DNA of 50,462 nucleotides. Origin: an uncultured Candidatus Saccharibacteria bacterium. GTDB taxonomy: Bacteria > Patescibacteriota > Saccharimonadia > Saccharimonadales > Saccharimonadaceae. Made by a program: the position numbers and the translations under genes. Below are positions 10,842 through 49,126 of this stretch, piece after piece. Every line of letters starts with the position of its first letter. Position 1 is the first letter of the stretch. A model generated the notes under the pieces. It did no database searches. It was not told where the DNA came from and saw only the letters and a program-made list of their open reading frames with translations. The stretch is from positions 1-50,462 of the forward strand of contig CAZSYG010000001.1 in assembly GCA_964610655.1 (NCBI GenBank), in the 5' to 3' direction.

Positions 10842-12719
10842 ATGTCAAAAATTATTGGAATTGACCTCGGAACAACTAACTCGGCGTTTGCTTATATGGT
10901 CGCCGGAAAGCCAGAAGTTATCACCAACAGCGAGGGCGACCGAACTACCCCGTCGGTCGTTGCGGTAACGAAAAAAGGCGACCGCCTCGTCGGGAAAGTT
11001 GCTCAACGTCAGCGCGTTACTAACCCGAAAAATACGATTTACGGGATTAAACGTCTAATCGGGCGTAAATTCTCCGACAAGGAAGTCCAAAAAGACCTCG
11101 ACATCATGCCCTATAAGATTGTCGAAAAAGGTAGCGGCGTTGCGGTTGAGATGGACGAGAAAAAATATACTCCGGAACAAATTTCCGCGATGGTTCTCTC
11201 AAAGATTAAAGCTGATGCTGAGGCTTTCCTCGGCGAAAAAGTGACCGAAGCGATTATTACCGTCCCCGCCTACTTCGACGATTCTCAACGCCAAGCGACC
11301 AAGAACGCCGGTAAAATCGCCGGTCTCGAGGTAAAAAGGATTATTCCTGAGCCAACCGCGGCGGCTCTTGCTTATGGTCTTAACAAAAAAGACGACGAAA
11401 AAATCGTTGTTTTCGACCTCGGCGGCGGAACGTTTGATGTTTCCGTCCTCGAACTCGGCGACGGCGTTTTTGAAGTTAAAGCGACTAATGGCGATACTCA
11501 TCTCGGCGGCGAGGATTTCGATAACATTATCGTCAACTATCTCTGCGACGAATTTAAGAAAGAATCTGGCGTCGATATTAAAGGTGATGCCGCGGCGATG
11601 CAGCGCATTAAAGATGAAGCCGAAAAAGCGAAAAAGGAACTTTCTTCCGCCGTCTCGACTGATATTAACCTCCCGTTCCTAACTGCTGACGCGGACGGCC
11701 CGAAACATTTTGAGCATACTCTAACTCGCGCAAAACTCGAAGAACTCGTCGCGCCTCTTCTCGACCGTCTCGAAGAACCAGTCAAAAAGGCGTTAAAAGA
11801 CGCGAAACTTTCCGAAAAAGATATTAACGAAGTTGTCATGGTCGGAGGTATGACCCGTATGCCGGCGGTTGTCGAAAAAGTTAAAAAGATTTTTGGTAAA
11901 GACCCGATGCAAGGCGTTAATCCCGATGAGGTCGTTGCGGTTGGCGCGGCGATTGAGGGCGGCGTTCTTCAAGGCGACGTTAAAGACGTTCTCCTTCTCG
12001 ACGTTACTCCGCTTTCTCTCGGTATCGAAACTATGGGCGGCGTCTGCACGAAACTAATCGACAGAAACACCACCATCCCGACTTCGAAGTCTCAGGTTTT
12101 CTCGACCGCTGCCGATAATCAGCCCCAAGTCGAAATCCACGTCCTCCAAGGCGAGCGCGAGATGGCAAACGACAACAAATCCCTCGGTCGTTTCATTCTC
12201 GACGGTATCGCTCCTGCTCCCCGCGGTATCCCTCAAATCGAAGTCACCTTTAACCTCGACGCGAACGGCATCTTAAACGTTACTGCGAAAGATAAGGGAA
12301 CCGGAAAAGAGCAGTCAATTACGATTCAAAACTCTGGGAATATGAGCAAGGAAGATATTGAAAAGGCTCAAAAAGAAGCCGAGCTCCACGCCGACGAAGA
12401 TAAGAAAAAACGCGAAGCTATCGACGCACGCAACGTTCTCGAAAATAAAGTCTACCAGTTCGAGAAGATGCCAGACGAATACAAAGACAAAATCTCCGAC
12501 GAGGATAAAGAGACAATCAAAAAGGCTTGCGACGCCGCGAAAGAAGTCTTAAAGGACGAAACCGCGGATAAGGAAAAACTCGAAGCCGCGACTAAAGACC
12601 TCGATTCTCGTATTATGCCCATCGGCGCGAAACTCTATCAACAAACTTCTTCCGACGCCTCTGCCTCTTCCGAAAAGAAAGATGACGACGACGCCGTTGA
12701 AGGTGAGGTGGTTAAATAG
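10842..12719 (+). CDS. dnaK: Chaperone DnaK (Hsp70)
   Basis: [42 protein letters not shown]. Confidence 0.99.
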
Positions 12720-12741: not shown

Positions 12742-12779
12742 AAAAAAACAAGGTCGGAATTGACTTCCGCCTTGTTTTT
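12742..12779. terminator. Bidirectional terminator-like hairpin after dnaK, homologous to the hairpin at 31727-31762
   Basis: AAAAACAAGG-T-CGGAA-TTGAC-TTCCG-CCTTGTTTTT. Confidence 0.75.
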
Positions 12780-12792
12780 AATCCCAAACTAT

Positions 12793-13197
12793 AAAAAAAT
12801 CGGGGGGAGAGGGGAACCGAGCTGGAACCCTCTCTCCGGCCAACAGGACTACTACCGAGCCACGCAGCGAACCGCGCGACCGTTGCCCTTACTGTTGTTG
12901 TTCTGTGGGTTGATGTTCGTAGAGTTGAAGTTCAAGTTGCGAGCGTTCGTAGGCGACGAAGCATACGAGGACCAGAAGTTGCCGTTGTTGCCGCGGTTGT
13001 TGAGGCCGCCATTAGGATAATTGTAGTTGCCGCTTCTTATAACTGGAACGAACTATTCCCACAAGGAATCGCTTTATTAACTTTACTTTCGTAAAAGTAA
13101 AACACCCTGACCTTTTAAAAAGGGTATTCCTCGATTTTTATCATTCTACTCCTAGAGATAGCGCCTCTCCCAGCAACGATTTTCTAAAAGTAGATGC
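12793..13197 (-). ncRNA. Putative stand-alone DGR template RNA, cassette 1
   Basis: Minus-strand TATAAT at 13209-13204; structured leader; AAC-rich template repeat; 3' GC hairpin and U-run; near-identical second copy 19,022 bp away. Confidence 0.8.
12852..13040 (-). repeat. DGR template repeat TR1
   Basis: Reads IRSGNYNYPNGGLNNRGNNGNFWSSYASSPTNARNLNFNSTNINPQNNNSKGNGRAVRCVAR*; 18 of 62 codons are AAY; in-frame stop 4 codons upstream and no start codon. Confidence 0.85.
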
Positions 13198-13226
13198 AAC
13201 TATATTATATAATAATCTCCCGCTCT

Positions 13227-14288
13227 CTAAAATTTTACCCGTTTTAGATGTTCTTTCGCTTTCAAAGTTACCATTCTTCCCCTTGGCGTCCTCTCTAACA
13301 TTCCGAGCTGTAATAAGTATGGTTCATAATAATCCTCAATCGTCGAGGGTTCATCTCCCGTCAGCGCCGCAATCGTCGTTAGCCCAACCGGTCTATCTCC
13401 ATAATTCTCCAACATCAACTCCAACATATTTCTATCCGCCGGATCCAACCCCAGCTCATCCACTTCCATCATCATCAGCGCCTCTTCTGCGGTTTTCCTA
13501 TCAACAATCCCGTCTCCGTTGACATCTGCATAATCCCGCACTCGTTTAAACAACCTGTTCGCAATTCGCGGCGTCAACCGCGAGCGTGTCGATAGTAGCG
13601 CCGTCGCTTCTGGCGAAATCTCCGTCTTTAAAATCCCCGCCGTCCGCGTAATAATTTTCTGAATCTCCCCCTCTTTATAATACTCAAGCCGATGAATTAT
13701 CCCGAACCTATCTCTTAGCGGCCCCGCCAGCGCTCCCGTTCGTGTCGTCGCTCCAATCACCGTAAATTTCGGTAAATCTAGCCGAACCGACCGCGCCGCC
13801 GGCCCTTTCCCGATGACGATGTCGAGTTTATAATCTTCCATCGCCGAATATAAAATCTCCTCAACCGTTCGCCTCAACCGATGAATCTCGTCAATAAATA
13901 AAACGTCCCCCGATTGTAAATTCGTCAAAATCGACGCCAAATCCCCCGCCCGCTCAATCGCCGGCCCCGACGTCACCCTTAAATTCGCCCCAATCTCATG
14001 CGCAATCACGTTCGCCATCGTCGTTTTCCCCAACCCTGGCGGGCCATACAACAAAACATGGTCAAGCGCCGACCCATCGTTGCGTTTTTTCACGGCGTCA
14101 ATCGCGAGTTTAAGATTCGTTTTTAGCCGCTCCTGTCCGATATAAGAAGAAAAATCCGTCGGCCTGAGCGAAACCTCAATTTCCCGTTCTTCCGAGTTCG
14201 ATTCATTCAACTCCGAATCAACCAACCTCTCTTTTTTCGCGGAAAAAACCTCTCCTGTCTCCTCGTTAAAACTCCTCTTGATACTCAT
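13227..14288 (-). CDS. ruvB: Holliday junction helicase RuvB
   Basis: [37 protein letters not shown]; start chosen at MSIKR. Confidence 0.97.
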
Positions 14289-14406
14289 TCTGTCTAAAAT
14301 TATACCATAAATTCTTGTCATTTTCCCTCCGCGCTCCAATCACGCCTCGACCCCTGTAAAATGCGTAAAAATGCCTTTAAACTTGTCCGGAAAATTCCGC
14401 CCATGC

Positions 14407-14488: not shown

Positions 14489-15145
14489 GTGAGAAAAATG
14501 GCGACGGATTTCCTCGCGAAAATCCCGAATAATCTCCGTGTTAGCTGCGATATCTACGAATATCTCGGCTACCAAGACGTCCTCGACCGCCGTCTCTATC
14601 TGAGCGGCGCGATTTCCTACGACAACGACGCTTTCTCCGACCCCGACGTGATGTCGCCCGAGGACATCGTTCAGTATATCCTCCAGTTCAACCGCGAGGA
14701 TAAGGAGCTCAAGCCCGAAGAGCGGAAGCCCATCCGCCTTTACATCAATTCCCCGGGCGGCGACATCGAACAGGGTTTCCCCATCGTCAGCGCGATTCAG
14801 CTCAGCCGCACCCCCGTCTATACCATCAACGTCGGCGAATGGGCGTCGATGGCTTTCCTGATTGGGATTACCGGCCACCGCCGCTTCTCCCTGCCCTATA
14901 TGCAGTTCTTGATGCACGACGGCTCGAACTTCATTCTCGGTTCCACCGGTAAGGTTCAGGATCAAGCGGACTTCAACAAGCGCTTCGAAAAAGAAGTCGT
15001 CAAGCGCCACGTTCTCTCCCACAGCAAGATTTCCGAAAAGGAATATGACAAGCGTTTCCGCGAAGAGTGGTATATGCTCCCCGAAGACGCCCTCGAAAAG
15101 GGTTTCATCGACCACGTCGTTACCTCCCTCGACGAAATCTTCTAA
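14489..15145 (+). CDS. ClpP-family (S14) protease subunit, divergent
   Basis: [15 protein letters not shown] (Ser), FLMHD (His), [10 protein letters not shown]; AAGGAG upstream, so the start may be ATG 14498. Confidence 0.85.
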
Positions 15146-19621: not shown

Positions 19622-20179
19622 GTGAGAAAAGTCCTGACCAGAGAAATCGTCGAATCGAAACTCGAAAAGTTTTACGGCGATTTGGAAACCGCGAAGCAAC
19701 AGGTCTTCCGGCTCAACGTTGACTCCATGCGTGGTTTCAACGAAATCGGCAGCTCCGCTTTCAGGGGGTTCGGCAGATTGACCGAGGTAATCATCCCCGA
19801 AGGAATCGAGAAAATCGGCGATTACGCTTTCGCTGAGTGTCCTCGGCTGAAGTTTGTCAAGCTCCCCTCGACTCTCAAGGAAATCGGTGAGCGCGCCTTC
19901 TACCGCTGTCTCCCGCTGTGCGGCGTCGAGTTTCCGGCGGGTCTGGAAAAAATCGGCGACCGCGCGTTTGCCTATACCGACTTCCGCTCCCTCCCCGATC
20001 TCCCCGACAGTTTCCTGAAGAGTCGCAGTCCCTACCTCGAATTTATCTTCAGAAACACTCCCGCCATGATCGAAAACGACTCCAAATTCCTCGCCAAGGT
20101 CTGCCACTGGAACCATTCCCACCATCGTTACTCCCGTCTCCTCAGCTTCGTCCGCCCCATCCGTTCGGCCCATTCCTAA
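19622..20179 (+). CDS. BspA-type leucine-rich repeat (LRR_5) protein
   Basis: Repeats IGSSAF, IPEGIEKIGDYAF, LPSTLKEIGERAF, FPAGLEKIGDRAF; AGGAGG then GTG. Confidence 0.85.
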   Translation: MRKVLTREIVESKLEKFYGDLETAKQQVFRLNVDSMRGFNEIGSSAFRGFGRLTEVIIPEGIEKIGDYAFAECPRLKFVKLPSTLKEIGERAFYRCLPLCGVEFPAGLEKIGDRAFAYTDFRSLPDLPDSFLKSRSPYLEFIFRNTPAMIENDSKFLAKVCHWNHSHHRYSRLLSFVRPIRSAHS

Positions 20180-30765: not shown

Positions 30766-31653
30766 TTATAATCTAAATTCATTTTTGTTGAGTTTAACTA
30801 ACTTATCTTCTGGTAAGTTAAACTTTTTTCCGCTCCGATAAGTTTTAATCGCGTTCAGAAAATCCATTAGTTGCGGTCGCGTGGCGGAAATGTTGGCTCT
30901 TATGGTTATGTAGCGTAAAAACTCAAGACTTGACTTTTCGTCGAGACTATGGAACCAATTTCGTTCATAAACTCGATTTTCCGGCAAAATACTTTCTAAA
31001 ATTTTTTCAACTTCTCGTTTAATTTCTTTTTCTTGAACCCAAAGTTGAAAAACTTGACCTTTAGTTTTAAAATCTAGACTTCGTGTTTTTTCGCGGAGTC
31101 GATTACGCAGATAATCGTCCGAAGAGTTCGTCGGGTCTTCTCGAAAAACAATTTTTTTCTCCGCCGCGTATTTTAAAATTGCTTTTTTATCAAAAAGTTT
31201 AAATCCAAATTCTTCTGGGCTAAAAAATCCATCAATCAACGGTCGTCGAATCCCGAAGCTAGAAAAAGACGCGAGCCCTCGCCAACCCGTCCCGCGTAAA
31301 AAATTTATCGCAATCGTTTCGATTAAATCGTCTAAATGGTGCGCCGTAAAAATTTCCCCGCGTTCTTTAAATGCAACTTCGCGCAAAAATTTATAACGCT
31401 CCTCCCGCGCTTTTTCTTCCGAAACTCCTGCGCCCAATTTCGCTTCACCATAATAACTTTTAATCCCGTTTTCTTTCGCTTTTTTCAGAACAAATTCCGC
31501 ATCTGTCTTCGCGCTCTCCCGCGTTCCGTGATTAAACGTTGCGACGACTAGCTCATCTCGCTTAATTTTTCCCGCCAAAACTTCGCCCAACATCATATCG
31601 AGCATCACCATCGAATCCATCCCCCCGCTCACTGCTAAAACTTTTTTCACCAT
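30766..31653 (-). CDS. tilS: tRNA(Ile)-lysidine synthase
   Basis: AVSGGMDS, NHGTR, AREERY, TAHHLDD, RPL, EDPTN, RNRLR. Confidence 0.95.
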   Translation of the reverse strand: MVKKVLAVSGGMDSMVMLDMMLGEVLAGKIKRDELVVATFNHGTRESAKTDAEFVLKKAKENGIKSYYGEAKLGAGVSEEKAREERYKFLREVAFKERGEIFTAHHLDDLIETIAINFLRGTGWRGLASFSSFGIRRPLIDGFFSPEEFGFKLFDKKAILKYAAEKKIVFREDPTNSSDDYLRNRLREKTRSLDFKTKGQVFQLWVQEKEIKREVEKILESILPENRVYERNWFHSLDEKSSLEFLRYITIRANISATRPQLMDFLNAIKTYRSGKKFNLPEDKLVKLNKNEFRL

Positions 31654-31677: not shown

Positions 31678-31740
31678 ATAATCCAAAATCAAAATCCGCC
31701 CCACTATAATTTTTGACTCATAATCCAAAATCAAAATCCG
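31678..31740 (+). repeat. 21-bp direct repeat ATAATCCAAAATCAAAATCCG
   Basis: Exact copies at 31678-31698 and 31720-31740. Confidence 0.85.
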
Positions 31741-31816
31741 AATTCACTTCGGTTTTGATTTTAATCCTAAAGTTCTTTCGTTGGGACTTTCTTTCTAAGA
31801 AAGTCCCAGACTCTTT

Positions 31817-32229
31817 AAAAATCGGGGGGAGAGGGGAACCGAGCGGGAACCCTCTCTCCGGCCAACAGGACTACTACCGAGCCACGCAGCGAACCGCGAA
31901 CCCGTTGCCCTTGTTGTTGTTGTTCTGTGGGTTGAGGTTTCTGCCGTTGAAGTTCAAGTTGCGAGCGTTCGTTGTGGATGAAGCATACGAGGACCAGAAG
32001 TTGCCGTTGCTGCCGCGATTGTTGAGGCCGCCATTATTGAAGTTGTAGTTGCCGCTTCTTATCTCGCGACAGGGTAGAGCCCAAGGAACATCTTTACTAA
32101 TATTTTTCTCGTAAGATAAATATAGATATGGTCTTTATTTCTTAAAAGAGTGTTCCGCGATTTTTATCATTCTACCTTTAGAGTTAGCGTTCTCTCACCG
32201 GATTAAAACGATTTTCCAAAAGTAGATGC
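31817..32229 (-). ncRNA. Putative stand-alone DGR template RNA, cassette 2
   Basis: Minus-strand TATAAT at 32241-32236; same leader stems, template repeat and 3' hairpin as cassette 1. Confidence 0.8.
31874..32062 (-). repeat. DGR template repeat TR2
   Basis: Reads IRSGNYNFNNGGLNNRGSNGNFWSSYASSTTNARNLNFNGRNLNPQNNNNKGNGFAVRCVAR*; 19 of 62 codons are AAY; no ATG/GTG/TTG between it and the upstream in-frame TAA. Confidence 0.85.
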
Positions 32230-32293
32230 ATATATATTATAACTCTACTCGTCTCCCTTTTTAAACCTCTGTTTTTATGCTATAATATATATT

Positions 32294-34075
32294 ATGGATC
32301 TCTCGAAAATTCGTAATTTTTGTATTATTGCCCATATTGACCACGGAAAATCTACTCTCGCCGACCGCATGATGGAAATCACCGGAACTGTCTCGAAACG
32401 CGAAATGAAGGCCCAACTTCTCGATTCAATGGATTTGGAGCGCGAAAAGGGAATCACCATTAAACTCGCGCCAGTCCAAATGTCCTATAAGGGTTACGAA
32501 TTGAACTTAATTGATACTCCGGGTCATGTCGATTTTAGCTACGAAGTTTCTCGCTCGCTTCAAGCTGTCGAAACTGCGATTCTCGTCGTTGACGCGACTC
32601 AAGGAATTCAGGCCCAAACTCTCGCGAACGTCTATCTCGCGCTTGAACAAGATTTATATATTATCCCCGTCATCAACAAAATCGACCTCCCCGCCGCCGA
32701 CATCGAAAAAGTTAAAAAAGAAATTATTAACCTCCTCGGTTGCTCCGAATCCGACATCATCGGCGTCTCCGCGAAGACCGGCCTTAACGTCGAACGTGTC
32801 CTCGACGCCATCATCGAAAAAAGCCCTTGCCCTAATGCAACCGCAAGGCGCAATGAACTAAGAGCTCTCATCTTCGACTCTTATTTCGATGACTACCGCG
32901 GCGTCGTTCTCTACGTCCGCGTCTTTAACGGCTCTCTCCCGAAAAACTCCGAAATCCATATGCTCGCCAACAACTCCAACGGTCTTGCTCTTGAAGTCGG
33001 AAAACTTACCCCGAAAATGTCCCCGAAAGATTCTCTAAACGAAGGCGAAATCGGCTATATCGTCACGAACTTAAAAACAACTCGCGAAGCCAAAGTCGGC
33101 GATACCGTAACTTTAAAAAAATCTCCCGCGGCCTCTCCGCTTTCCGGCTACAAAAACGTCCTCCCGTTTGTTTATGCCGGTTTCTTCCCCGTTTCTAATG
33201 ACCAATATAAAACCTTAAAAGACGCAATCGAAAAACTTGCCCTCTCCGACTCTGCTCTCGCTTTCGAGCCGGAAAACTCTCCTGTCCTCGGTTTTGGTCT
33301 CCGTATTGGTTTTCTAGGATTGCTTCATATGGACATTATTCGCGAGAGGCTAGAGCGCGAATTTAATCTCGACTTAGTCATCACGAACCCCTCGACCAAT
33401 TACCAAGTCATCCTAAATTCCGGCGAAGAACTCGAAATCAAATCCGCCGCCGATCTTCCTGATATGAGCGAAGTTCTAGAAATTCGCGAACCTTGGGTTA
33501 AAGGCGAAATTATTTTACCAAAAACCATGATTGGCGGAGTTTTAAACTTAATTGTCGAAAAACGTGGCGTCCAAAAAAACTTGAGCTATCTCGAAGACCG
33601 CGCGATTATTGATTTTGAGGCGCCCATGGCGAATCTCCTTACCGATTTTTATGACCAACTAAAATCTATTACCTCCGGCTATGCTTCCTTTAACTACGAG
33701 CTTGCGGATTATCGTGCCGAAGACCTTGTTCGGGTCGATTTTCTCGTTTCGGGTCAAAAAATTGACGCGCTCGCGATTATGTGTCATCGTTCCGAAGCTG
33801 ACGCGATCGGTCGAACCGTAACGAAAAAGTTAAAAGAAGTTATTCCGCGCCAAAATTTCGAGGTCGCTCTCCAAGCCGCTATCGGCTCTCGGATTCTTGC
33901 CCGCGAAACTATCGGCGCCTACCGAAAAGATGTTACCGTAAAAATCCATACCGGCGACCGCGATCGCAAAGCGAAACTCCTCGAAAAACAAAAACGCGGC
34001 AAAGCTCGCATGAAACGTTTTGGTAAAATTGATATTCCGTCCGAAGCGTTTACGGTTATGCTAAAGCGCGACTAA
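32294..34075 (+). CDS. lepA: Elongation factor 4
   Basis: IRNFCIIAHIDHGKSTLADR, DTPGHVDF, GFLGLLHM, KLLEKQK. Confidence 0.98.
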   Translation: MDLSKIRNFCIIAHIDHGKSTLADRMMEITGTVSKREMKAQLLDSMDLEREKGITIKLAPVQMSYKGYELNLIDTPGHVDFSYEVSRSLQAVETAILVVDATQGIQAQTLANVYLALEQDLYIIPVINKIDLPAADIEKVKKEIINLLGCSESDIIGVSAKTGLNVERVLDAIIEKSPCPNATARRNELRALIFDSYFDDYRGVVLYVRVFNGSLPKNSEIHMLANNSNGLALEVGKLTPKMSPKDSLNEGEIGYIVTNLKTTREAKVGDTVTLKKSPAASPLSGYKNVLPFVYAGFFPVSNDQYKTLKDAIEKLALSDSALAFEPENSPVLGFGLRIGFLGLLHMDIIRERLEREFNLDLVITNPSTNYQVILNSGEELEIKSAADLPDMSEVLEIREPWVKGEIILPKTMIGGVLNLIVEKRGVQKNLSYLEDRAIIDFEAPMANLLTDFYDQLKSITSGYASFNYELADYRAEDLVRVDFLVSGQKIDALAIMCHRSEADAIGRTVTKKLKEVIPRQNFEVALQAAIGSRILARETIGAYRKDVTVKIHTGDRDRKAKLLEKQKRGKARMKRFGKIDIPSEAFTVMLKRD

Positions 34076-36976: not shown

Positions 36977-37011
36977 ATTGTTTCCCCCAAGAGAATATCA
37001 GCTTGTACTGC

Positions 37012-37070
37012 TGATATTATATCAGAAATCTGGCCCAAAAGCAAAAATAGCCGGGGTTCTGTCGCCCGGC
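37012..37070 (-). promoter_or_regulatory. Terminator-plus-promoter module, copy A
   Basis: Minus strand GCCGGG...CCCGGC hairpin and T-run, then TTGCTT-17 nt-TATAAT. Confidence 0.7.
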
Positions 37071-37108
37071 ATACTTGTAAGTGCTAACCGTCTATTGAAT
37101 TAATACTA

Positions 37109-40100
37109 TTACTGATTGCCCTTGTGGTCTTTTTTTCTACTGTTTCGATCTGAAGCTAATCTCGCCGCTTCAATATTCCGGGTTCTTGCGTGATTTTTAC
37201 TTTTCTTCTCCGTATGATAGCTTGCGCCGTTCATTCTCAGAATTTCCGACAACTTCGACTCTTGGATAATCGCACCAGAGAAATCGCAATCCAATAAATT
37301 GATATACGGAATAGAAATAAACCCAGCGACTGACTTCCTTCGAACGGAAGAAGCGTTTGTCACGTCCCATATTAATATGGTGCCGTCACTTGAAGCGCTG
37401 GCAGCATAGCATCTTCCGTTGATCGCTGGGCTCGCGCTTACATTCCACACAAAGCTCGAATGTTCAGTTTTTACCTCCAGCTGTTTTTTCTGTTGCAAAT
37501 CCCATATACCAATTAGCGCATCCGTTGTGCCGCTGACGAGAAACTGGCCGTTTTGCGATAATGCTGCGCCATAAATAAAATCGGTATGGCGGTTTGGAAA
37601 GTATGCCGGAACTCCTGTAATATTCTGCGTTTCTTTGTCAAATCTATGAGATATTATTCCTCCATCATTAGACGTTGTGATAATCTCATTGCCGTCTTCA
37701 GTCCATAATACTGTGCGGATAGGTTCGCTATGGCCACTTTCAGCTATTTGAATTGAATCGAGCGCCAGCAAATCCCAAAGCACAATTGTGCGGTCATTTC
37801 CGCCACTGACCAGAAAGTATTCGTCTGGAGACACGGCAAGGCTGTAGATTCCTTTGCTGTGACGGGTGGGCAACGCGATCTGAGTATCTGCCTTTCTCTC
37901 CCAAAGAACTAACGTACAATCATCAGAGCCACTCACTATCCTGCCATCCTTCAAACAGACGACCGCGTTCACTGAATCGGTATGCGCATTATGAGACGCT
38001 ATGCATGCTTCGCTTTCATCAGGGCAAGTCGTATCCCAAAGCCGAACAGTCCTATCGTCCGATCCGGATATCAGATGAGTATTATCGTTCATCCACGCGA
38101 CACATTTGACGCTATCCATGTGACCTTCGATTATATTGACGCATCTTTTTGAAGCGGTATCCCATATGCGTATACTCCCATCGTCATATCCAGCGGCTAA
38201 TCTGGAGCCGTCCTTTGACCAGCTGGAGCATCTGGCAGTATTAGGGCATTTGTCGCCAAGCAGAGCGCTTGTAATCTGTTCTCTATTTTCTTCAACCACA
38301 TCAATTGTTATGCGGCAGACTGTCCCGTCCCGGAAACCGCAAATGAGTTCTGTCGCGTCACGATTCCAGCATGCGTTGACAACACGCTGTTTTGAGTAAT
38401 CCAGCAGTCCGTGTGTCCCAATAGCCGCCATTTGGTATCCGTTGTCTACAATAAAACCAGTCTGCATCTCTACCACATTATTGTAGAACAAAGCGATTTT
38501 GTCGCCCTGGGTATCCGAATGCCCAATCGCAACTGCCGAGATATTATTACGACATAAGGGTGGAGCTACTAAAGGCGCGGCTTCCAACTTCATGTCTCCC
38601 GCCATTTCTTTCAGATGGTTCCAGTCAAGCAACCGCAATTCATCTCGTGTAGACACGGCTATAATATAATTATTTATCCAATTCAAAGATGTAATCTCGT
38701 TACTGTCAGCTGAAATCGTACACATGGGCTTTTTTGCTCTCGCGTCCCATATGCATACCAACCCGCTTTTATCCACAGTTGCCAATATACCGAATGATCC
38801 TGGATTCCAGTCGGCAAAAATGACACGATTTTGATGGATTTTTGGAAGCTCTATAGAATTGGCTTTTTGATAAAACAGCTTGACGATCCCTTCCTCGTCG
38901 CCACAGGCAATAGCCCTCCCATCATGGGACCAAGCCATACATCTTATCCAGTGAGCGCAACTGCCTTTTATTTCGGGCTTCCAGCGAGAGGTCTTACTGT
39001 TATACTGCCAAACGCAAAGTTTCTTGTCGTCTCCGGCGCTGGCGATTATATTGTTTTTCGTAGGATGCCACTCCGCACATCTGATATAATGCTGATGGAA
39101 ACGCTTGAGTACAATATTCTTTTCAGAGAGGCGATCCCAAATCCGAATTGAACAGTCGTATGACGCGCTGAGATAACGATTCCCGTTTGGACTCCATGAG
39201 ATTGCCGATACATTCATTCTATGGCCTTTGCCAAAGAAAGTGTTCGACGATAGTTTGCATCCAATAAAGTGGCCTTTGCTATTCCGTAGATCGAGATTGA
39301 TCAATGGTACGTTTGATAAATCCAGCCCACTGAAATTGATCGAATCGGCATTTCTGCCATAAGCCATTCTATACATTTCCAGCATTTTCAGGATAAACTT
39401 CGTATCATGGTCTGTTGCTTTTCGGTGGAGCTCCCACAATTTCTCCCAAACAGTTTCTTTATCTGAAAATCGCGGTTCAGTTTCGAGAAGATTGGCCACA
39501 AAGCCCATGATGTACTGATCAAAGGGTAAAGTCCATTCCACAGGAATCGCTTCATCGGTACTGGTTTCAGCAAGGTTGTAAAGATAAATAGCGGCAAGAC
39601 AGTCCCTGAAATGCTGGTGGACCAGTTGTACTTGACCATCATTGTCATAAAAAAGGCAGAGCGTTTTTACCAGGAGATTATACATATTGTCCCGCAAAAT
39701 AGCATCGGAACCGTTTTGATATTTCATTTCTTGAATATGTAAAGGCAATCGATTATTCTTCGAGTGCGCTTCATATAAATCACAGGCACTGTTGACATAG
39801 GCAATAAAGTCCCTATGGCTTATTATGAATTGATTGTTCTTCGCCATTTCATAGCAAATATACGGAGCGACAAACTCCGCCGCGACACAATAGTCGTAGT
39901 TTCCCGCCTCCGTTTGGTCCCGCAAATAGCTCTCACTTTGGATATAATTCCAGATTATTGAACCGGGGTTTTTGTTTTCCCTCCAGTCGCCGGTAGTATG
40001 CTGATATTTTTGCTTGAAGGCTTCAAATTTTGCAAAGAGTATAAGCATGAGTGGCGTGTCGATAACGTTCCACAAATTGTCCTGCGGTGGAGGAAGCATA

Positions 40101-41314
40101 ATGCTGTTTTGCTTCAAAAATGACTCTATGGTTTTCCGATCCAGTGAATCGGCGTGTACTTGCAGTGGAGCGTGGAATTCACTTTGAAGCTCTGAAACCG
40201 TGTTGTTGCGCGAGGCGAAAAGTATTTGGATGTTTCTCATGCCGCTCCAGTCTGTTTTAACTTCGTGCATGACCACGTTTTTTAGGGCATTGTCCAATTC
40301 GTTCACGCCGTCCAGGATAAGCAAAAGGGAGGGCTTTCCGAAGGAGGGCTGTTCGCACATAGCAAAGAGATCCTTCATCAGCGTGGTATCGTGATGCAAG
40401 GTTACGGCTTCGATATAATGCTGAATCGGCGTTGTGGACGTATGCAACCGTCTTAATGGAATATAAATAATCGAGGTGTCAATCGCAAGCGACAACAGTG
40501 ATATTGTCTTTCCAATACCCCCTATGCCAAATAGTGATATATATTTCACGGGCTCTCCATTGATATTCCAGCTTCTCTCTATAATATCCGGCAGGGGCAT
40601 GGAAATATCCTCTATATCACGGTTGCCGCCCATTACATGATAATTTTCCAGAATACTGCCTTTGATGAGAATCTCATCGCTGACGCCGATGCTATCGTAG
40701 CTTGGGTTCTTATCCTTTTCTTCGAGGTATCCAGCCTTAAGCGCTTCACGAAGACAATCATATTGGCTGGACTGATTTAGAACGGCCTTTTTTTCTTCGT
40801 TTTGCGCATGAGATGGGCTCTGTAATTGTCTGATAGCATTTATCATGCACACCTGTTCAAAAGACAGATATGAGTTAGATTTTTCCTCAACCATTTCCTG
40901 AAACGACAGAAAAAACTGCTGAATCAATGACTGATCGGTTCCATTCAGTTTTGGTTTGTCTGCTTGCGACAATATTTGGTTAACCCTATCAATAGCTTTT
41001 TCCTTGACTTCGCAGATAAATTCATTCCGCGGTTTGCTATTCTGATTTGGATTAAGCACGTATTGAATAATTTCTTCGCACGGCTTGTGGTTTTCGAGAT
41101 ATTGGTAAAAAGCATTCTCAGACAGTATGCTTCCGTCATTCTGTTTTGCTGCGTCAGTTAAGAATTGCTCAATGGATTTCATCAGCATGTTTTTGAAATC
41201 ATTTTTCTTCTTTTCGTCCATGAAGTTGGTCTGCTTATTCAGCATAGGCACAGCTGCAAGGCTGGCAAAAATACTATTAAGTATACTCTTCCATTCAAAG
41301 ATAATCATGATCAT
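37109..41314 (-). CDS. STAND/NACHT-like NTPase with C-terminal WD40 repeats (NLR-like)
   Basis: Walker A GIGGIGKT, Walker B LLILDGVNE, TPLML, HQHFRDCLAA, pentapeptide-like FSGLDLSN, many GH...WD repeats; the start may be a few codons downstream. Confidence 0.88.
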   Translation of the reverse strand: MIMIIFEWKSILNSIFASLAAVPMLNKQTNFMDEKKKNDFKNMLMKSIEQFLTDAAKQNDGSILSENAFYQYLENHKPCEEIIQYVLNPNQNSKPRNEFICEVKEKAIDRVNQILSQADKPKLNGTDQSLIQQFFLSFQEMVEEKSNSYLSFEQVCMINAIRQLQSPSHAQNEEKKAVLNQSSQYDCLREALKAGYLEEKDKNPSYDSIGVSDEILIKGSILENYHVMGGNRDIEDISMPLPDIIERSWNINGEPVKYISLFGIGGIGKTISLLSLAIDTSIIYIPLRRLHTSTTPIQHYIEAVTLHHDTTLMKDLFAMCEQPSFGKPSLLLILDGVNELDNALKNVVMHEVKTDWSGMRNIQILFASRNNTVSELQSEFHAPLQVHADSLDRKTIESFLKQNSIMLPPPQDNLWNVIDTPLMLILFAKFEAFKQKYQHTTGDWRENKNPGSIIWNYIQSESYLRDQTEAGNYDYCVAAEFVAPYICYEMAKNNQFIISHRDFIAYVNSACDLYEAHSKNNRLPLHIQEMKYQNGSDAILRDNMYNLLVKTLCLFYDNDGQVQLVHQHFRDCLAAIYLYNLAETSTDEAIPVEWTLPFDQYIMGFVANLLETEPRFSDKETVWEKLWELHRKATDHDTKFILKMLEMYRMAYGRNADSINFSGLDLSNVPLINLDLRNSKGHFIGCKLSSNTFFGKGHRMNVSAISWSPNGNRYLSASYDCSIRIWDRLSEKNIVLKRFHQHYIRCAEWHPTKNNIIASAGDDKKLCVWQYNSKTSRWKPEIKGSCAHWIRCMAWSHDGRAIACGDEEGIVKLFYQKANSIELPKIHQNRVIFADWNPGSFGILATVDKSGLVCIWDARAKKPMCTISADSNEITSLNWINNYIIAVSTRDELRLLDWNHLKEMAGDMKLEAAPLVAPPLCRNNISAVAIGHSDTQGDKIALFYNNVVEMQTGFIVDNGYQMAAIGTHGLLDYSKQRVVNACWNRDATELICGFRDGTVCRITIDVVEENREQITSALLGDKCPNTARCSSWSKDGSRLAAGYDDGSIRIWDTASKRCVNIIEGHMDSVKCVAWMNDNTHLISGSDDRTVRLWDTTCPDESEACIASHNAHTDSVNAVVCLKDGRIVSGSDDCTLVLWERKADTQIALPTRHSKGIYSLAVSPDEYFLVSGGNDRTIVLWDLLALDSIQIAESGHSEPIRTVLWTEDGNEIITTSNDGGIISHRFDKETQNITGVPAYFPNRHTDFIYGAALSQNGQFLVSGTTDALIGIWDLQQKKQLEVKTEHSSFVWNVSASPAINGRCYAASASSDGTILIWDVTNASSVRRKSVAGFISIPYINLLDCDFSGAIIQESKLSEILRMNGASYHTEKKSKNHARTRNIEAARLASDRNSRKKDHKGNQ

Positions 41315-41408
41315 TCTCCCATGTTTTTCAGCATATTGCTTTAATACTACATAAAGTATAAGCTTGTTAGCTCAATTAGTCAACGATTTCAATATCGCAT
41401 TATATTGG

Positions 41409-41468
41409 TGATATTATACCAGATAATCAGCCCAAAAGCAAAAAAGCCGGGTAATTATTACGCCCAGC
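41409..41468 (-). promoter_or_regulatory. Terminator-plus-promoter module, copy B
   Basis: Homologous to copy A, directly downstream of the recombinase stop codon. Confidence 0.7.
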
Positions 41469-41480
41469 AAAATGATATGA

Positions 41481-43076
41481 TTATTTGTCGATTATCTCAG
41501 TAATCTCTGTTCCGTCCGTAAAGCAGAATACCAGCTTGCCCTTTTCGCCTTTCTCAACCAGGATTCGGTCGATAGCGAGGGTGAACACATCATCACGGAA
41601 TTCAGTCATCTCCCCCTCGCACATTGCCAGCACTCTCATGAACCGACGCAACTTCTCTTTCTTCGCCGTCTGTGCGAGGATTGCCTTTTTCGCGGCTTCC
41701 AGCAGCTGCTTCTTTTCATCGACGACGTCCTTCTGCGCGTTATACTTCATCAGGTACACATTCTGATCCTGCTTATATTGTGTGTTCTCTTTGATGATGC
41801 CCTGAAGCGAGTCCAGCGCGTTTTGCAGAGCATCCTCTGCTTGAGCGCGCTGACGTTCCAATTTGGTCGTATTTGATAGTATCTTCAATTCCGATTCGTA
41901 AATGGCTTCATATGCGGTCTTGTTTTTCAAGACTTTGTTGAGGGCAGTGAGGAATGCCTTTTTGATGGCGTATTCCCTCAAGAGTGGCGTTTCGCAAACC
42001 TTATCGCCGTTGTAACGCTGATTGCAATACCAGACGTCGGTTCGGAACTTATCCTTGCCGTGGAACACCTTGTGGCCGAAGTAACCACCGCAGTCACCGC
42101 AGACCAGCTTTGCCGTTAGCACGTTTTTTCCGCTGAGCTTTGACCCATGTCGGCTCCGCCTCTCCAGTTCAACCTGAACGAGATCGAATTGATCAGGCGG
42201 TATGATGGCCGGATGCGAGTTGCTGATATAATACTGTCTGGCATCGCCCTCGTTTTTCTTCACCTTCTTGGTCAAGTAGTCCACTACGATGGTCTTCTGT
42301 AGCAGAGCGTCACCTTTGTATTTCTCATTCGACAGGATGCTTTTGACCGTAGAGACGGCCCATTTGTGCTTTCCGGCTGGAGTGGGAATACCCTCTCCAG
42401 TTAAAGTATCTGCTATATATCGGATGGTCTTCCCGTCGAGGAACATCTCGTATATCCTGCGGACGATTACTGCTTCTTTCTCGTCAATTTCCAGCTTCCC
42501 ATCGGCGCCTTTCCTGTAGCCCAAAAAGTGCTTGTACCCCACAGACACCTTCCCGTTCTGCATACTGCGCTGGCGTCCCCAACGTACGTTCTCGCTGATT
42601 GACCGGCTTTCCTCCTGGGCCAGCGAGCTCATGATTGTCAGCATGACCTCACATTTGGGGTCGAGGGTATTGATATGCTCTTTCTCGAATCTCACCTCAA
42701 TGCCTTTAGCTTTAAGCTCGCGTATCGCCTGAAGCGTATCGACCGTATTGCGAGCGAATCGGGAAATAGACTTGGTTAGGATCAGGTCGATATCTCCATT
42801 CAATGCCGCTTCCATCATACGGTTGAATCCATCGCGCTTTTTGGTATTCGTTCCCGATATACCCTCGTCGGCAAAGACGCCCGCGGATTCCCAATCGGGG
42901 TTAGCCCCTATAAATTGAGTATAGTATTTAACCTGTGCCTCGTAGCTGTTCTGCTGCTCGTCCTGTTCAGTTGAGACGCGGGCGTAAGCAGCAACCCGCA
43001 GCTTCTTAGGCTGGAAGGTATTACTGTCCACAATGAGCCTTTGGATGACTGGCTCAATTACTGTTACTTTAGCCAT
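41481..43076 (-). CDS. Large serine recombinase
   Basis: AAYARVST, DEGISGT, TKSISRFARN, recombinase domain, Zn ribbon CGDCG, coiled coil. Confidence 0.95.
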   Translation of the reverse strand: MAKVTVIEPVIQRLIVDSNTFQPKKLRVAAYARVSTEQDEQQNSYEAQVKYYTQFIGANPDWESAGVFADEGISGTNTKKRDGFNRMMEAALNGDIDLILTKSISRFARNTVDTLQAIRELKAKGIEVRFEKEHINTLDPKCEVMLTIMSSLAQEESRSISENVRWGRQRSMQNGKVSVGYKHFLGYRKGADGKLEIDEKEAVIVRRIYEMFLDGKTIRYIADTLTGEGIPTPAGKHKWAVSTVKSILSNEKYKGDALLQKTIVVDYLTKKVKKNEGDARQYYISNSHPAIIPPDQFDLVQVELERRSRHGSKLSGKNVLTAKLVCGDCGGYFGHKVFHGKDKFRTDVWYCNQRYNGDKVCETPLLREYAIKKAFLTALNKVLKNKTAYEAIYESELKILSNTTKLERQRAQAEDALQNALDSLQGIIKENTQYKQDQNVYLMKYNAQKDVVDEKKQLLEAAKKAILAQTAKKEKLRRFMRVLAMCEGEMTEFRDDVFTLAIDRILVEKGEKGKLVFCFTDGTEITEIIDK

Positions 43077-43079
43077 TGA

Positions 43080-44408
43080 TTATTCCTCCTCTCCTTTTCG
43101 CTTTCTATGTTGTTCAAGACTTTTTTGCCTTGCTCGTTCTCTCATCTCCGGTGTCCAGCTTTTGCTGCGCGATGGGTTTTCCCACTTAACCGTCTCAATA
43201 CAACCATCCTTCAAATAATAGCGAAGCAAATTGTGCTCTGGTACTTCAATGCGCTTGATTTGTTTAGCAATCAATTCGTCGGTCAGTTCCTGCTCTTCTT
43301 GTAGATCCAGCACTGCACGGGTTTTCTCGATCAGGATATCTTCGCGTATTCGCTGAGATGAGCAATACCCTTTGCCTAATTCATCAAAGGTGCAACACAT
43401 CCAAACGGGGAATCGTCGTTTTTGCGAGGTTGGAGCATTTTTCCGAACATATGTTGAACCGCAGTCACCGCAGTATATCAAACGACTGAATAAGTGGCCT
43501 TCTGTTTTGTGTTTTGATTCGTACAGTTTTTCCCGTCGAACAATTTCCTCTTGGACCTGACGAAATAGCTCAGGAGAAACAATCGGCTCATGGCTCTCTT
43601 CGACATAGTACTGTCGTCGCTCGCCGCGATTTCGTCTTTGCTTTTTTGTTCGGAAGTCTTCGACATATTTCTTCTGAAGCAGCATATTACCAGCATATTT
43701 CTCATTCCTGAGCAGATCATAGATATGAATTGGTTTCCATGCCTTTTTATCGAATAGCAATCCATCATCATTGAGTTTTCTAGCAATAGCCTGAGTTCCC
43801 ATTCCTGCCAGATAATCGTTGAATATTCGACGTACTACCACAGCCTCTTCTTCCACAATTTGCAGCTGACTGTTGACCATTCGATAGCCGAAAAGATTAT
43901 GCCACGTCGGAATTCCTTCCTCAAATTGCTTTTGTATCTGCCAGCGCTTGTTCTCAGAGGCTGACCGAGCTTCCTCCTCGGCAAACATAGCGATTAGCGA
44001 CAGCATCAGGTCTCCATCTGCGCTGAACGAGCTCATGTTCTCTTTCTCGAACAGTACCTCAATCCCAAGCTCCTTCAGCTCCCTGACCGTCTTCAGCAGC
44101 GTGACAGTGTTGCGGGCAAAGCGAGTAATCGACTTCGTAATCACGACATCGAACTTCCCTGCGCGAGCGTCCGTCAACATCCGCTGGAATTCTGGACGGT
44201 TCTCCTTGGTTCCCGACAAACCGTAATCAGCATAAACCCCGGCGAATAGCCAGCCGGGGTGATTGCCGATATAGTCGTTATAGTAGCTAACCTGATTGGA
44301 AAGGGAATCCAGCGCCGCTTGCTTCTCTACAGAAACGCGGGCATATGCCGCCACCCGTTTGAACGCGGGGGCGACTATTATGGTGGGTTTGATTTCTCTT
44401 ATTTGCAT
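43080..44408 (-). CDS. Large serine recombinase
   Basis: AAYARVS, DYGLSGT, TKSITRFARN, CGDCG. Confidence 0.95.
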   Translation of the reverse strand: MQIREIKPTIIVAPAFKRVAAYARVSVEKQAALDSLSNQVSYYNDYIGNHPGWLFAGVYADYGLSGTKENRPEFQRMLTDARAGKFDVVITKSITRFARNTVTLLKTVRELKELGIEVLFEKENMSSFSADGDLMLSLIAMFAEEEARSASENKRWQIQKQFEEGIPTWHNLFGYRMVNSQLQIVEEEAVVVRRIFNDYLAGMGTQAIARKLNDDGLLFDKKAWKPIHIYDLLRNEKYAGNMLLQKKYVEDFRTKKQRRNRGERRQYYVEESHEPIVSPELFRQVQEEIVRREKLYESKHKTEGHLFSRLIYCGDCGSTYVRKNAPTSQKRRFPVWMCCTFDELGKGYCSSQRIREDILIEKTRAVLDLQEEQELTDELIAKQIKRIEVPEHNLLRYYLKDGCIETVKWENPSRSKSWTPEMRERARQKSLEQHRKRKGEEE

Positions 44409-44430
44409 AAGCGTTACCTCCTACCCTCCA

Positions 44431-44805
44431 TCAATCCCTCTTTTGGGGCAGGAAGTCCAGCGTTTTCTGCGGTAAATTTTCGCGTCGCTGGGCAGGAATA
44501 TGGCCCATAATCCGCCTTTCCCGGTTCCACCAGGAATAGCGGCATTTATCGGAACAAAATGTCTTGCCTACGCGATTCCAAGGATTGTCCATAGTCCTTC
44601 CGCAGAATTTGCAGCGAGGCAGCTGCTCAATCTCCACTGCCTTATTGATGTTCTTTTGAGGTGTGTTCTCTCTGGGCATGAACTCATACTTCCGACATAC
44701 GGATTTGATTGTGTTCGGTGATATTCCCAGCGTCTTTCCGATGCTGGCATAGGTATAATTGTCGGCGCGTAGTTGGCCGATGGTCTCAATCTGCATTTCG
44801 TTCAT
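44431..44805 (-). CDS. Small HTH plus Cys-motif protein next to the recombinases
   Basis: IGKTLGISPNTIKSVCR, CKFCG...FCSDKCRYSWW; AAAGGAGG before ATG 44805. Confidence 0.75.
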   Translation of the reverse strand: MNEMQIETIGQLRADNYTYASIGKTLGISPNTIKSVCRKYEFMPRENTPQKNINKAVEIEQLPRCKFCGRTMDNPWNRVGKTFCSDKCRYSWWNRERRIMGHIPAQRRENLPQKTLDFLPQKRD

Positions 44806-44960
44806 CTTGCGCCTCCTTTCATTCTTATTGGCATTCCCCCTCATAGCAAATTGACTTAATAAGGTATATTGTTGGTACCCCTCATTGGGGCATATGGATA
44901 ACCGGCCCGCGCTGTGGCGGACCGGAAATGTGTTGAGTGGTATAGCTGATTCTGCAGCTA

Positions 44961-45191
44961 CTACAGTTTGCGCACTTCGTCTTCACCGGGAATCATCCCC
45001 AAGCCGGAACCATTGTCCCAGCTGATCTGGATCGTTCCCGCGTCATCCACGAACTCCACTGTGCCCTTCGTGCCGGGCATCAGCTTCGTATAAGGGTCGC
45101 TGGTATGCACCAACTCTACTCGGGTCCCTTTGGGGTACTGAGCGCGGAGCATGTTGATCCTCGCTCTCGACGGGAAACCATTATTCCTCAT
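44961..45191 (-). CDS. DUF4314-like protein
   Basis: YPKGTRVEL, GTKGTVEFVDDAG, WDNGSGL. Confidence 0.8.
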   Translation of the reverse strand: MRNNGFPSRARINMLRAQYPKGTRVELVHTSDPYTKLMPGTKGTVEFVDDAGTIQISWDNGSGLGMIPGEDEVRKL

Positions 45192-46362
45192 CGTCAGATT
45201 CCTCCTCTTCATCTCCAACGTCCGTTTCTTCCTCTTCCGGCTCCGGGTCAGACTTGACCGGCTCTTCCGGCGTGCTCACAGCCGGAGCCACCACGGTCGG
45301 CATCTCAAGGTCGAAGCTGCTGGCATCCGGCGCGTTGCCGTATCGCCACGCTCCGTTGCCCTCCAGATTCCTGATCAGGAACCGCCGAGCGAACTTGAAC
45401 TCTTCGCCCTTGAACCCCAGATTGTTGAGGAACAGGCGCATCGTGAACTTGTCGTTGTCGGTCGGTTTTTCCGTCGCGCTGATCCGCGAAGAGGTCAACG
45501 CCCTCATCGCAATGGCGTAAATGAACTTCGCATAGGCATCCACTTCGCCATCCACGCCCTGAAGCGTGAACCACGGGAACTGGATCTGATCGTCCGTTAC
45601 GACAATCGGCAACTCCTGCGCGTCGAACACTTTCTTCAAAAGCGTCTGCTTACTGGAAACCAGCGCTCTCAGGCGTTCAATCGCGGCGGGGGAGAACTTG
45701 TCTTTCGGCAGGGAAAGGGTCAGCCGGGAATCGTCGGAATCCTCAGCCTCATCTATGGCTTCGGCCTCCTCGGTCTCCTCGGCGCTTTCCGCTGCCTCGC
45801 CCTCGACGGTTTTCTCGCCCTCGTCGGGCGCGGATTCGCCGCTTTCCGGGGCTTTCTCGGCCTCCTCGGTATCGTCCTCGCTGGCCGGGGAATCCCCGCC
45901 CAAAGGGGCGATTTCCGGGGCGTCGTGCGCTTCCGGTTCCGGCTCCTCCGAGCCTTCCGCTTCAGGTTCCTCATCGGCATCCTCAGCTTCATCCTCGATC
46001 CCGTCGTCCTCGCGCTTTTCATCGTCATCAGAACTCTCGGCCTCATCAGCCTCCGGCTCTTCCTCTTCCGGCTTAACATCCGCTTCCTCGGAATCGGTTT
46101 CCTCATCGGGAAACAGCTCCGACAGCGATTCCTCCGGCTTGTACTCGTACTCAGCGTACAGAGCGTCAACCAGCCGGAAAACATCATCCGTCGTGGCTTC
46201 GTCCGGAGTGATCAGATTGCCGTTCCTGTCGACAATGTAACCGCCAATGTTATAGGCGTAGCTGGGCGGCCCCTGATAAACAGAGGCGACGGCCAGCAGG
46301 TGGGCGATAGCTTTGACAAGTTCCTTGCGGGCGGGTCCAGTGACGTTATAGGTGATTTTCAT
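45181..46362 (-). CDS. Prophage/ICE-associated protein with a long acidic insertion
   Basis: RKELVKAI...YQGPPSYAY N-domain; FPWF, NDKFTMRLFL..LGF...RNLEGN C-domain. Confidence 0.75.
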   Translation of the reverse strand: MKITYNVTGPARKELVKAIAHLLAVASVYQGPPSYAYNIGGYIVDRNGNLITPDEATTDDVFRLVDALYAEYEYKPEESLSELFPDEETDSEEADVKPEEEEPEADEAESSDDDEKREDDGIEDEAEDADEEPEAEGSEEPEPEAHDAPEIAPLGGDSPASEDDTEEAEKAPESGESAPDEGEKTVEGEAAESAEETEEAEAIDEAEDSDDSRLTLSLPKDKFSPAAIERLRALVSSKQTLLKKVFDAQELPIVVTDDQIQFPWFTLQGVDGEVDAYAKFIYAIAMRALTSSRISATEKPTDNDKFTMRLFLNNLGFKGEEFKFARRFLIRNLEGNGAWRYGNAPDASSFDLEMPTVVAPAVSTPEEPVKSDPEPEEEETDVGDEEEESDDEE

Positions 46363-46415
46363 AGGGAAACTCTCCTTTCTTATATTGGCATCCAGCTCAT
46401 GTTGGAATTGACCAG

Positions 46416-47152: not shown

Positions 47153-47157
47153 CTGAA

Positions 47158-47427: not shown

Positions 47428-47440
47428 ATAGACCTCCTCC

Positions 47441-48668: not shown

Positions 48669-48693
48669 GGTAAAAGCCCTCCTTCTATATGTA

Positions 48694-49122: not shown

Positions 49123-49126
49123 GGAA

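Follow-up and report, generated by a model that had tools for sequence, protein, structure and literature searches.

Diversity-generating retroelements (DGRs) are usually described with one template per reverse transcriptase (RT), and the number and place of their targets vary. Antigenic variation from silent cassettes is known from Neisseria pilS and Treponema pallidum tprK. In Borrelia vls, as far as the accessible description goes, one full-length gene is accompanied by many shortened versions of its variable end, which are in frame and flanked by conserved sequence (most papers cited here were accessible in part). DGR components act across loci in Treponema denticola, Thiohalocapsa PB-PSB1, and cyanobacteria (PMC5758913, PMC10907252, PMC7517822). 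The accessible sections report remote targets with TR, avd, and brt working in trans from a plasmid (PMC5758913), trans activity (PMC10907252), and remote paralogues (PMC7517822), with one template repeat (TR) for many genes. Template variants between strains and leftover variable regions (VRs) have also been described (PMC4891356). Some DGRs have more than one TR, including that of Stenotrophomonas SKA14 with two TRs and six VRs, which lie in different ORFs as described; free-standing templates, a shared target, or silent cassettes do not appear in the accessible part of that report (PMC6642488). A survey rule places the repeat within 1 kb of the RT (PMC8144416). The accessible part of 10.1101/2024.11.15.621889 held nothing relevant. 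In a literature set that excluded a dedicated CPR DGR study and supplements, we found no paper on free-standing multiple DGR templates or DGR-derived silent cassettes.

The window analyzed here, a stretch of 50,462 nt from a Candidatus Saccharibacteria genome, carries two copies of a repeat, TR1 and TR2. Like the Bordetella phage BPP-1 DGR (mtd, avd, TR, brt), this system has an AAC-rich noncoding TR, an adenine-only VR at the 3′ end of a gene with a putative C-type-lectin (CLec) fold, an Avd-fold accessory protein, and a predicted leader-trailer RNA duplex. Unlike in BPP-1, the TR lies outside the cassette, there are two TRs and an empty unit, IMH equals IMH* with a predicted hairpin in both, and Avd carries an additional alpha/beta domain at its N terminus (294 aa in total). 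The trans-acting DGRs above have remote targets and one TR for many genes, whereas here the templates are remote, several of them for a single scaffold, and the VRs at remote sites are truncated fragments. More than one TR per RT recalls SKA14, and the truncated in-frame copies recall vls; unlike in vls or pilS, the diversity of the cassettes comes from DGR adenine mutagenesis. By its core features this is a real DGR, but its layout is noncanonical, with two free-standing templates and an empty unit, a single likely RT, a single target scaffold, and VR copies that are truncated.

Results

TR1 and TR2 are different templates

Both templates are at housekeeping-gene sites. The features of the two units are listed below; gene names are those that we presume from sequence resemblance.

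10842..12719, plus strand: dnaK (presumed), flanking TR1
12755..12769, no strand assigned: bidirectional terminator-like hairpin shared by the TR1 unit and dnaK
12795..12851, minus strand: TR1 trailer, with an IMH extension common to VRs, a predicted hairpin (12828-12837/12806-12814), and a TR-specific predicted duplex strand (12795-12802)
12852..13040, minus strand: TR1, template repeat of 62 codons plus TAG, 18 Asn codons; cognate VR C28:31-219(-)
13041..13203, minus strand: TR1 RNA leader, sharing homology with the leader of TR2 and with the empty unit of contig C2; predicted duplex strand 13132-13139 and predicted stem 13126-13130/13064-13069
13204..13231, minus strand: TR1 promoter-like site from a consensus scan, TATAAT at 13209-13204 and a -35-like hexamer from 13231
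13227..14339, minus strand: ruvB (presumed), flanking TR1
30766..31653, minus strand: tilS-like gene (presumed), flanking TR2
31738..31807, no strand assigned: 3′ end of the TR2 unit, with an extra palindrome (31783-31807) and a bidirectional terminator-like hairpin (31738-31752)
31817..31873, minus strand: TR2 trailer, with a predicted hairpin (31850-31859/31828-31836) and a predicted duplex strand (31817-31824)
31874..32062, minus strand: TR2, template repeat with 19 Asn codons; cognate VR C16:7196-7384(-) and database protein P0001
32063..32235, minus strand: TR2 RNA leader, with predicted duplex strand 32158-32165 and stem 32151-32156/32085-32090
32073-32082/31868-31878, minus strand: predicted stem enclosing TR2
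32236..32265, minus strand: TR2 promoter-like site, TATAAT at 32241-32236, in the same register as in the TR1 unit
32294..34075, plus strand: lepA (presumed), flanking TR2

A preliminary description had counted 22 mismatches between the copies and concluded that they were not a TR-VR pair. Our recount gave the same figures: 22 of 189 nt differ. Copy 1 has the A at 3 of these sites and copy 2 has it at 7; the other 12 lack A in both copies. A TR-VR relationship is ruled out by the 12/22 non-A differences, and neither copy is the A-mutated product of the other. Seven of the 12 non-A differences are third-position changes. The reported 18 and 19 Asn codons were also found (16 AAC plus 2 AAT in TR1, 16 plus 3 in TR2). 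Codons 7, 8, 9, 15, 18, 28, 29, 30, 40, 41, 43, 50, 54, and 55 differ; the preliminary list overlooked 15 and 18. The mismatches cluster at the nucleotide level (14 neighbors at most 3 nt apart versus 7.4 expected; P = 0.00065), and clustering is borderline at the codon level (P = 0.058). The 3′ segment is invariant in both copies, as described, and the match continues for 52 nt beyond (51/52). This segment had been called IMH*-like, a label that cannot tell a template from a target because the segment is identical in the VRs. TR1 and TR2 sit in a 259-nt direct repeat, and with gaps the homology covers about 440 nt (13209-12782 and 32241-31804), not 186. It had also been said that neither copy is in an ORF. 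The minus-strand frames are stop-free but have no in-frame ATG; the plus strand opposite TR1 and TR2 contains TTG-started antisense ORFs of 86 and 111 aa, which are probably shadows.

The proposal that each template fixes or frees different positions was borne out. The set of reachable amino acids differs at nine codons, and the two sets have no member in common at codon 40 (S or G) or codon 55 (R or F). By computation, each library holds about 1e29 sequences, and the libraries do not overlap. The benefit of the second template is a second scaffold, not a bigger count. A further proposal, that the clustered patches came from recombination with mutated VRs, fared less well. Codons 9, 18, 30, 43, and 55 are compatible with an origin from A-mutated codons of Asn type or containing A; however, 12/22 differences are non-A and no donor was found. 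Block exchange with VRs or other TRs is a plausible origin. Pure self-homing as the source of TR divergence is unsupported in two-template genomes (non-A differences 12/22 here, 8/13 in G010, and 6/10 in G024). In template arrays of relatives, differences are enriched at Asn codon positions 1 and 2 (18-22% versus 6-7%) by a test that is partly circular.

Each template has its own variable region

The source genome (G000; 721 kb, 58 contigs, 98% complete) contains a cognate VR for each template. The VR at C28:31-219(-) has 13 differences from TR1, 13/13 at TR1 adenines (hypergeometric P = 2e-8), and 0 non-A differences over 136 non-A sites; it has 14 non-A differences from TR2. The VR at C16:7196-7384(-) has 18 differences from TR2, 18/18 at TR2 adenines (hypergeometric P = 5e-11), and 19 non-A differences from TR1. 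TR1 and TR2 are therefore distinct DGR templates: for each there is a cognate VR in agreement with it at every non-A site. The diagnostic sites assign C28 to TR1 and C16 to TR2, and the alternative that all VRs match one TR is false. Mosaic VRs, which the preliminary description had advised looking for, were not found (0/2 at the DNA level and 0/1 at the protein level [P0001], with partial read-derived alleles too short for inclusion).

Both variable region types share one target scaffold

The preliminary description had suggested that two templates could serve shared targets or different paralogues. The shared target is favored and the paralogue branch disfavored, because the constant sequence upstream of the C28 and C16 VRs is the same (93 nt identical). 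Both VR copies are 5′ truncated, with 125 (C28) and 107 (C16) open codons and no in-frame ATG (one TTG in C28), and the trailer of the C28 cassette stops after 18 nt, without the trailer hairpin. Their parent gene is an 899-aa open frame on C35 that leaves the contig end inside the constant region. Database protein P0001 (1006 aa) is identical to it over 899 aa and ends in a VR. All 62 residues of this VR are reachable from TR2 by A-mutation, and 5 are unreachable from TR1. Therefore, the only full-length allele is TR2-type, and it copies neither the C16 allele nor the C28 allele. P0001 and G000 may share a source sample, which makes P0001 a completion of the gene rather than a replication of the finding. 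Among the alleles seen, there was no TR1-type allele of the full-length gene. In all, G000 has one C35 gene, cassettes on C28, C16, and C11, and a 38-nt remnant of the constant region on C3 (C3:23623-23660), beside a tRNA gene. Upstream of the junctions at C3, C16:7477, and C11:44 there is a common short motif rich in pyrimidines, which may reflect an insertion preference.

The Fib_succ_major match in P0001 was below the cut-off. A model of the paralogue on C43 (pLDDT 56) matched TvpA (Z 6.4, rmsd 4.8, 162 aligned) as well as Mtd (Z 5.7); its matches listed were mostly to CLec/FGE-type folds, all with Z below 8. Judged on this paralogue, we assign the target a CLec fold with moderate confidence. 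A hydrophobic N-terminal stretch in the target suggests a surface anchor, and the target is likely a surface protein.

The likely Avd-RT partner is on another contig

The canonical arrangement, with the TR in or beside the RT cassette, is absent here. No RT is encoded on the 50-kb contig, where TR1 and TR2 are 12.8 and 18.4 kb from the nearer contig end. G000 has two PF00078 matches over the cut-off, on C44 and C43. C44 starts with the TR1/TR2 trailer, followed by a 294-aa Avd-fold protein (C44:198-1082) and a 373-aa RT, and has no TR. The model of the C44 accessory protein (pLDDT 90) matches Avd 4dwl (Z 14.6, rmsd 1.8, 106 aligned, TM 0.86) and 8ub7 over residues 177-294. This protein and its counterpart at C43:2295-3140 are Avd fused to an N-terminal alpha/beta domain, which we take to resemble MutS domain I (MSL accessory genes). 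A Pfam bAvd search of G000 gave no match, Foldseek gave none at E ≤ 0.001 for the accessory or target-paralogue model, and Atlas and PDB sequence searches with the accessory protein gave nothing informative.

The C43 system (G000:C43:923-4808) is a complete DGR in its own right and consists of a target, the Avd fusion, an RT, and then TR3 on the opposite strand. TR3 and its VR differ at 16 positions, 16/16 at adenines; TR3 has a 12-bp leader-trailer duplex and a trailer unlike that of TR1 and TR2. TR1 and TR2 were ruled out as templates of the C43 or C15 genes (37-52 non-A differences). The C15 gene (G000:C15:583-4248) encodes a 1221-aa paralogue with two FISUMP-like domains and matches none of the three TRs in the assembly.

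The C44 Avd-RT pair is the likely partner of TR1 and TR2, an assignment that is indirect because the C35-to-C44 join is unassembled. In G074 the C35 gene block adjoins avd-RT, and in G145 and at L196 a VR is directly upstream of avd-RT. These gene orders support a C35-C44 join in G000. A FastTree of 41 RTs groups the C44 RT with those of G030, G074, G130, G145, and G088 (support 0.995). Its closest named relatives are from Ca. Saccharibacteria of the ruminant gut (62-76% identical), whereas viral relatives are only 32-36% identical. DGR-type RTs are present in 80/121 sampled genomes of the genus.

TR1 and TR2 units are predicted stand-alone RNA genes

The homology of the two units starts at a TATAAT hexamer in each (13209 and 32241), and a terminator-like hairpin is at the end. 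Promoter scans found 2 sites for TR1 (0.7 in shuffles) and 7 in the TR2 region (1.6 in shuffles). Between the units, 122/181 aligned columns of the leader are conserved, compared with 167/189 for the TR and 51/52 for the trailer. The VR trailers equal the TR trailer, and thus IMH equals IMH*, over 51-53 nt past the stop; divergence begins at the TR-specific strand that is complementary to the leader. Identical IMH and IMH* are described for some DGRs in the accessible text of PMC5758913.

Leader-trailer duplexes are a conserved DGR RNA element, according to the accessible part of 10.1101/2023.10.23.563531. Among the relatives' loci, a perfect leader-trailer complement of at least 9 bp was found in 17/44 TRs and 1/24 loci classed as non-TR. 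That single locus has 13 Asn codons and is in fact a template from an array. Shuffle means were 6.9. For TR1 and TR2 the longest-match test did not choose the proposed duplex, which is only 8-9 bp and A/U-rich, and RNA folds placed it inconsistently, so here the duplex is a prediction. An Rfam search gave no credible match. With TATAAT box, terminator, and putative duplex, TR1 and TR2 are each predicted to be a stand-alone RNA gene. The empty unit (G000:C2:22387-22560, minus strand; L037) has the leader motifs and full trailer with a 5-nt loop instead of a TR, and one compensatory change within the predicted leader-trailer pairing.

Genome G067 has neither template at these sites. Its dnaK orthologue is 97% identical and has no TR downstream, its lepA and ruvB are 92% identical, and its tilS-lepA gap is about 46 nt versus 640 nt in G000.

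Other parts of the window and genome were noted in passing. The palindrome of the TR2 trailer (31783-31807) is found again downstream of another gene (G000:C21:4467-4563), which suggests a small repeated element. Positions 37000-50462 have another codon style and encode what we take to be two large serine-recombinase-like proteins (41481-44408), a 1401-aa WD40-like protein, and an AAA-type ATPase; the region is probably an integrated mobile element. Presumptive ClpP-like (14489-15145) and leucine-rich-repeat-like (19622-20179) genes have atypical composition and were possibly acquired horizontally.

TR2-type alleles vary between samples

We compared the C28 cassette with assembled read contigs from four runs of one study (X1-X4), which may include the source sample. 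TR1 and TR2 contigs were in 4/4 runs, with difference counts as expected (8/5/13 and 23-24). Depth at TR1 and TR2 was 13.3 and 13.8 in X1 (single-copy flank, 20.7) and 4.0 and 4.5 in X4 (flank, 5.4). Separately assembled run contigs again contained the 5′ junctions of the cassettes on C28, C16/C11, and C3, and the depth of the constant region fits two to three copies, not more.

Among the pieces listed, and leaving out two gap-adjacent places in X4, TR2-type VR pieces differed from TR2 at adenines, with 1 difference in X1, 5 in one X2 piece, 4 in the other, and 5 in X4; the X2 pieces had one additional, gap-adjacent non-A difference. The adenine differences occur in different combinations in X1, X2, and X4. 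This gives indirect support for retrohoming and favors current activity of TR2. The TR1-type allele was unchanged over 124 nt in X1 and X3 (the 3′ part is the same as in G000); current use of TR1 is therefore only presumed.

Runs X1-X3 also contain an extra TR-like contig and a second constant region, both absent from G000. A related population in the same samples has its own TR type and a 1063-aa target seen as three alleles that vary in the VR (P0002, P0005, and P0006), and the extra TR-like contig fits a P0002-type relative. A 24-nt pattern scan of metagenome contigs found one short contig. When 301 genomes of the family were searched at the DNA level, G145 alone matched in addition to G000.

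Remote templates, template banks, and cassette sets recur in relatives

Remote templates are a minority state because the TR adjoins the RT at 25 of 30 RT loci retrieved (a contig end truncates L063). Even so, the G000 architecture was found again in G074, G145, G030, and G437. G074 and G145 have one remote TR each. G030 has a TR beside the RT, with leader and trailer motifs as in TR1 and TR2. G437 (RT 76% identical) has six VRs of two types, three each, behind one constant leader, and its incomplete assembly yielded no templates. G130 yielded no TR or VR match.

A second RT clade (G010, G102, G036, and G078; support 0.996) holds template banks, and G010 has two TRs for one RT. The banks are tandem and dispersed:

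G102:C63 (L134): at least 7 template units in the regions fetched
G029:C10 and C31 (L137, L139): at least 12 units
G036 (L145-L150): at least 6 units

Units in these three genomes have a conserved leader-trailer complement and differing fixed residues. In the G029 array 2/12 units contain stop codons, so some extra templates may be decaying. The RT of G102 and G036 is a single frame with an insertion of about 29 aa.

VR-like profile matches numbered 51 in G074, 83 in G078, and 28 in G030. More than 50 each were also seen in G087, G093, G131, and G138, and G087 gave no match to the C44 RT query. The G074 cassettes lie in mixed-orientation clusters:

G074, contigs C7, C15, C2, C8, C11, and C3 (L102-L115): VR cassettes

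G074 has at least 37 in-frame truncated VR cassettes, one parent gene (broken at a contig end), and one remote TR. The cassette boundaries are sharp (-42 and +176): most cassettes extend from 41-43 nt before the TR-homologous start to about position 176. When the 33 gap-free alignable cassettes were compared with the single TR, 41% of adenines and 7% of other sites differed. All 37 complete cassettes found by anchors are in frame (one has a stop in its boundary codon), in regions picked from profile matches, so that broken cassettes elsewhere could escape. Stops were depleted (0 versus 11.7 expected; for private changes, 0 versus 4.1, P = 0.015), and an excess of synonymous changes came from recurrent changes only. 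The stop depletion could reflect selection inherited from the parent. In G030 the adenine bias was 51% versus 3% (15/27 matches), and the selection signal was not significant (P = 0.077). An origin of the cassettes as RT copies of the target mRNA was ruled out in G074, where the constant leader has no adenine bias (3% at A versus 3-6%). Flank sharing as proof of rewriting in place was dropped because neighboring cassettes confound it. We suggest that truncated cassettes may act as donors.

Discussion

Our favored explanation, which we consider somewhat better than an even bet, is that TR1 and TR2 are alternative DGR templates, predicted stand-alone RNA genes that are likely read in trans by one Avd-RT pair and likely rewrite the same CLec-fold tip. 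Transcription of each unit would start at its own TATAAT box and stop at its terminator, and the RNA would fold into a shared scaffold. The C44 RT and Avd would then copy either RNA with errors at adenines, as the shared trailer, synteny, and relatives indicate. The cDNA would replace the whole VR, so that all diagnostic sites switch together, which is the pattern seen in the VRs. The recipient would be the 1006-aa FISUMP/CLec gene that starts on C35, together with the 5′-truncated copies that share its scaffold. One protein allele places TR2 as a writer of the full gene, and TR1 presumably writes it too. TR1 and TR2 would in this way supply the two computed libraries. The truncated cassettes might be DNA-level snapshots of earlier alleles and possible donors, the weakest step of this scheme. 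Saccharibacteria live as epibionts. From this lifestyle, the likely benefit would be retuned adhesion to bacterial hosts or escape from phages.

TR1 could instead have been used until recently and then replaced by TR2, leaving the C28 cassette as a fossil of the TR1 period. Every varying allele and the single full-length allele are TR2-type, and the one TR1-type VR is static in G000, X1, and X3 and lacks the trailer hairpin. The empty C2 unit shows that such units can lose their template, most G074 cassettes share non-A states unlike the current single TR (21/33 at position 162), and T. denticola retains VRs of a lost TR type, as the accessible part of PMC4891356 describes. However, TR1 itself has not decayed: it has 0 non-A differences from its VR over 136 sites, 18 Asn codons, and an intact TATAAT, trailer, and terminator. 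The TR body is also conserved far beyond the leader (167/189 versus 122/181), and arrays of 6-12 intact units in another RT clade indicate that multiple templates are maintained. We therefore regard replacement of TR1 as improbable, though with a real chance of being right.

Two further explanations turn on the assembly. With 58 contigs that break at VRs, and with the further TR-like contig and second constant region of X1-X3 not in G000, TR1 might serve a separate full-length paralogue or RT cassette missing from the assembly, in a parallel, unshared system. This we find quite unlikely, given only two RTs in a genome rated 98% complete, a constant-region depth that fits two to three copies, and repeat entries (C28, C16, C11, and C35) that balance exits (C13, C16, C27, and C44), four each; the additional TR-like contig fits the P0002-type relative. 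TRs or cassettes could also have come from different strains or from mis-resolved repeats, since this is a metagenome assembly with 55-nt overlaps and the shared repeat is longer, no read-contig piece covers the entire C28 cassette, and all four runs are from one study that may include the source sample. But both TRs are within one 50-kb contig with distinct unique flanks, their contigs recur in 4/4 runs at a depth near that of the single-copy flank, the cassette junctions recur, and four relatives have the same architecture. An artefact of this kind is very unlikely.

The favored explanation, alternative templates for one target, can be extended to a three-tier adaptive library in gut Saccharibacteria. 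The template bank would act as germline segments, and one RT would mutate a chosen template into a single lectin-fold adhesin. Alleles that succeed would be archived as sharply delimited, in-frame silent cassettes for recall by gene conversion, the bank would take up selected VR residues, and the C2 unit would be a decoy or acceptor. We put this forward tentatively and think it doubtful as a whole.

The template side of this DGR is modular, in that separate RNA genes provide different fixed scaffolds for one target. Modular templates escape the limit of varying template adenines only. Surveys that require a repeat within 1 kb of the RT would overlook such elements. Tools for multiplexed targeted mutagenesis could also draw directly on a natural DGR RNA scaffold that acts in trans and comes with several templates. 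The G074 cassette set merits its own study; if cassettes are donors, then retrohoming and silent-cassette conversion, which have been thought separate, would be coupled. With DGR-type RTs in two-thirds of the sampled genomes of the genus, a host-dependent lineage with 0.7-Mb genomes invests heavily in this kind of diversification.
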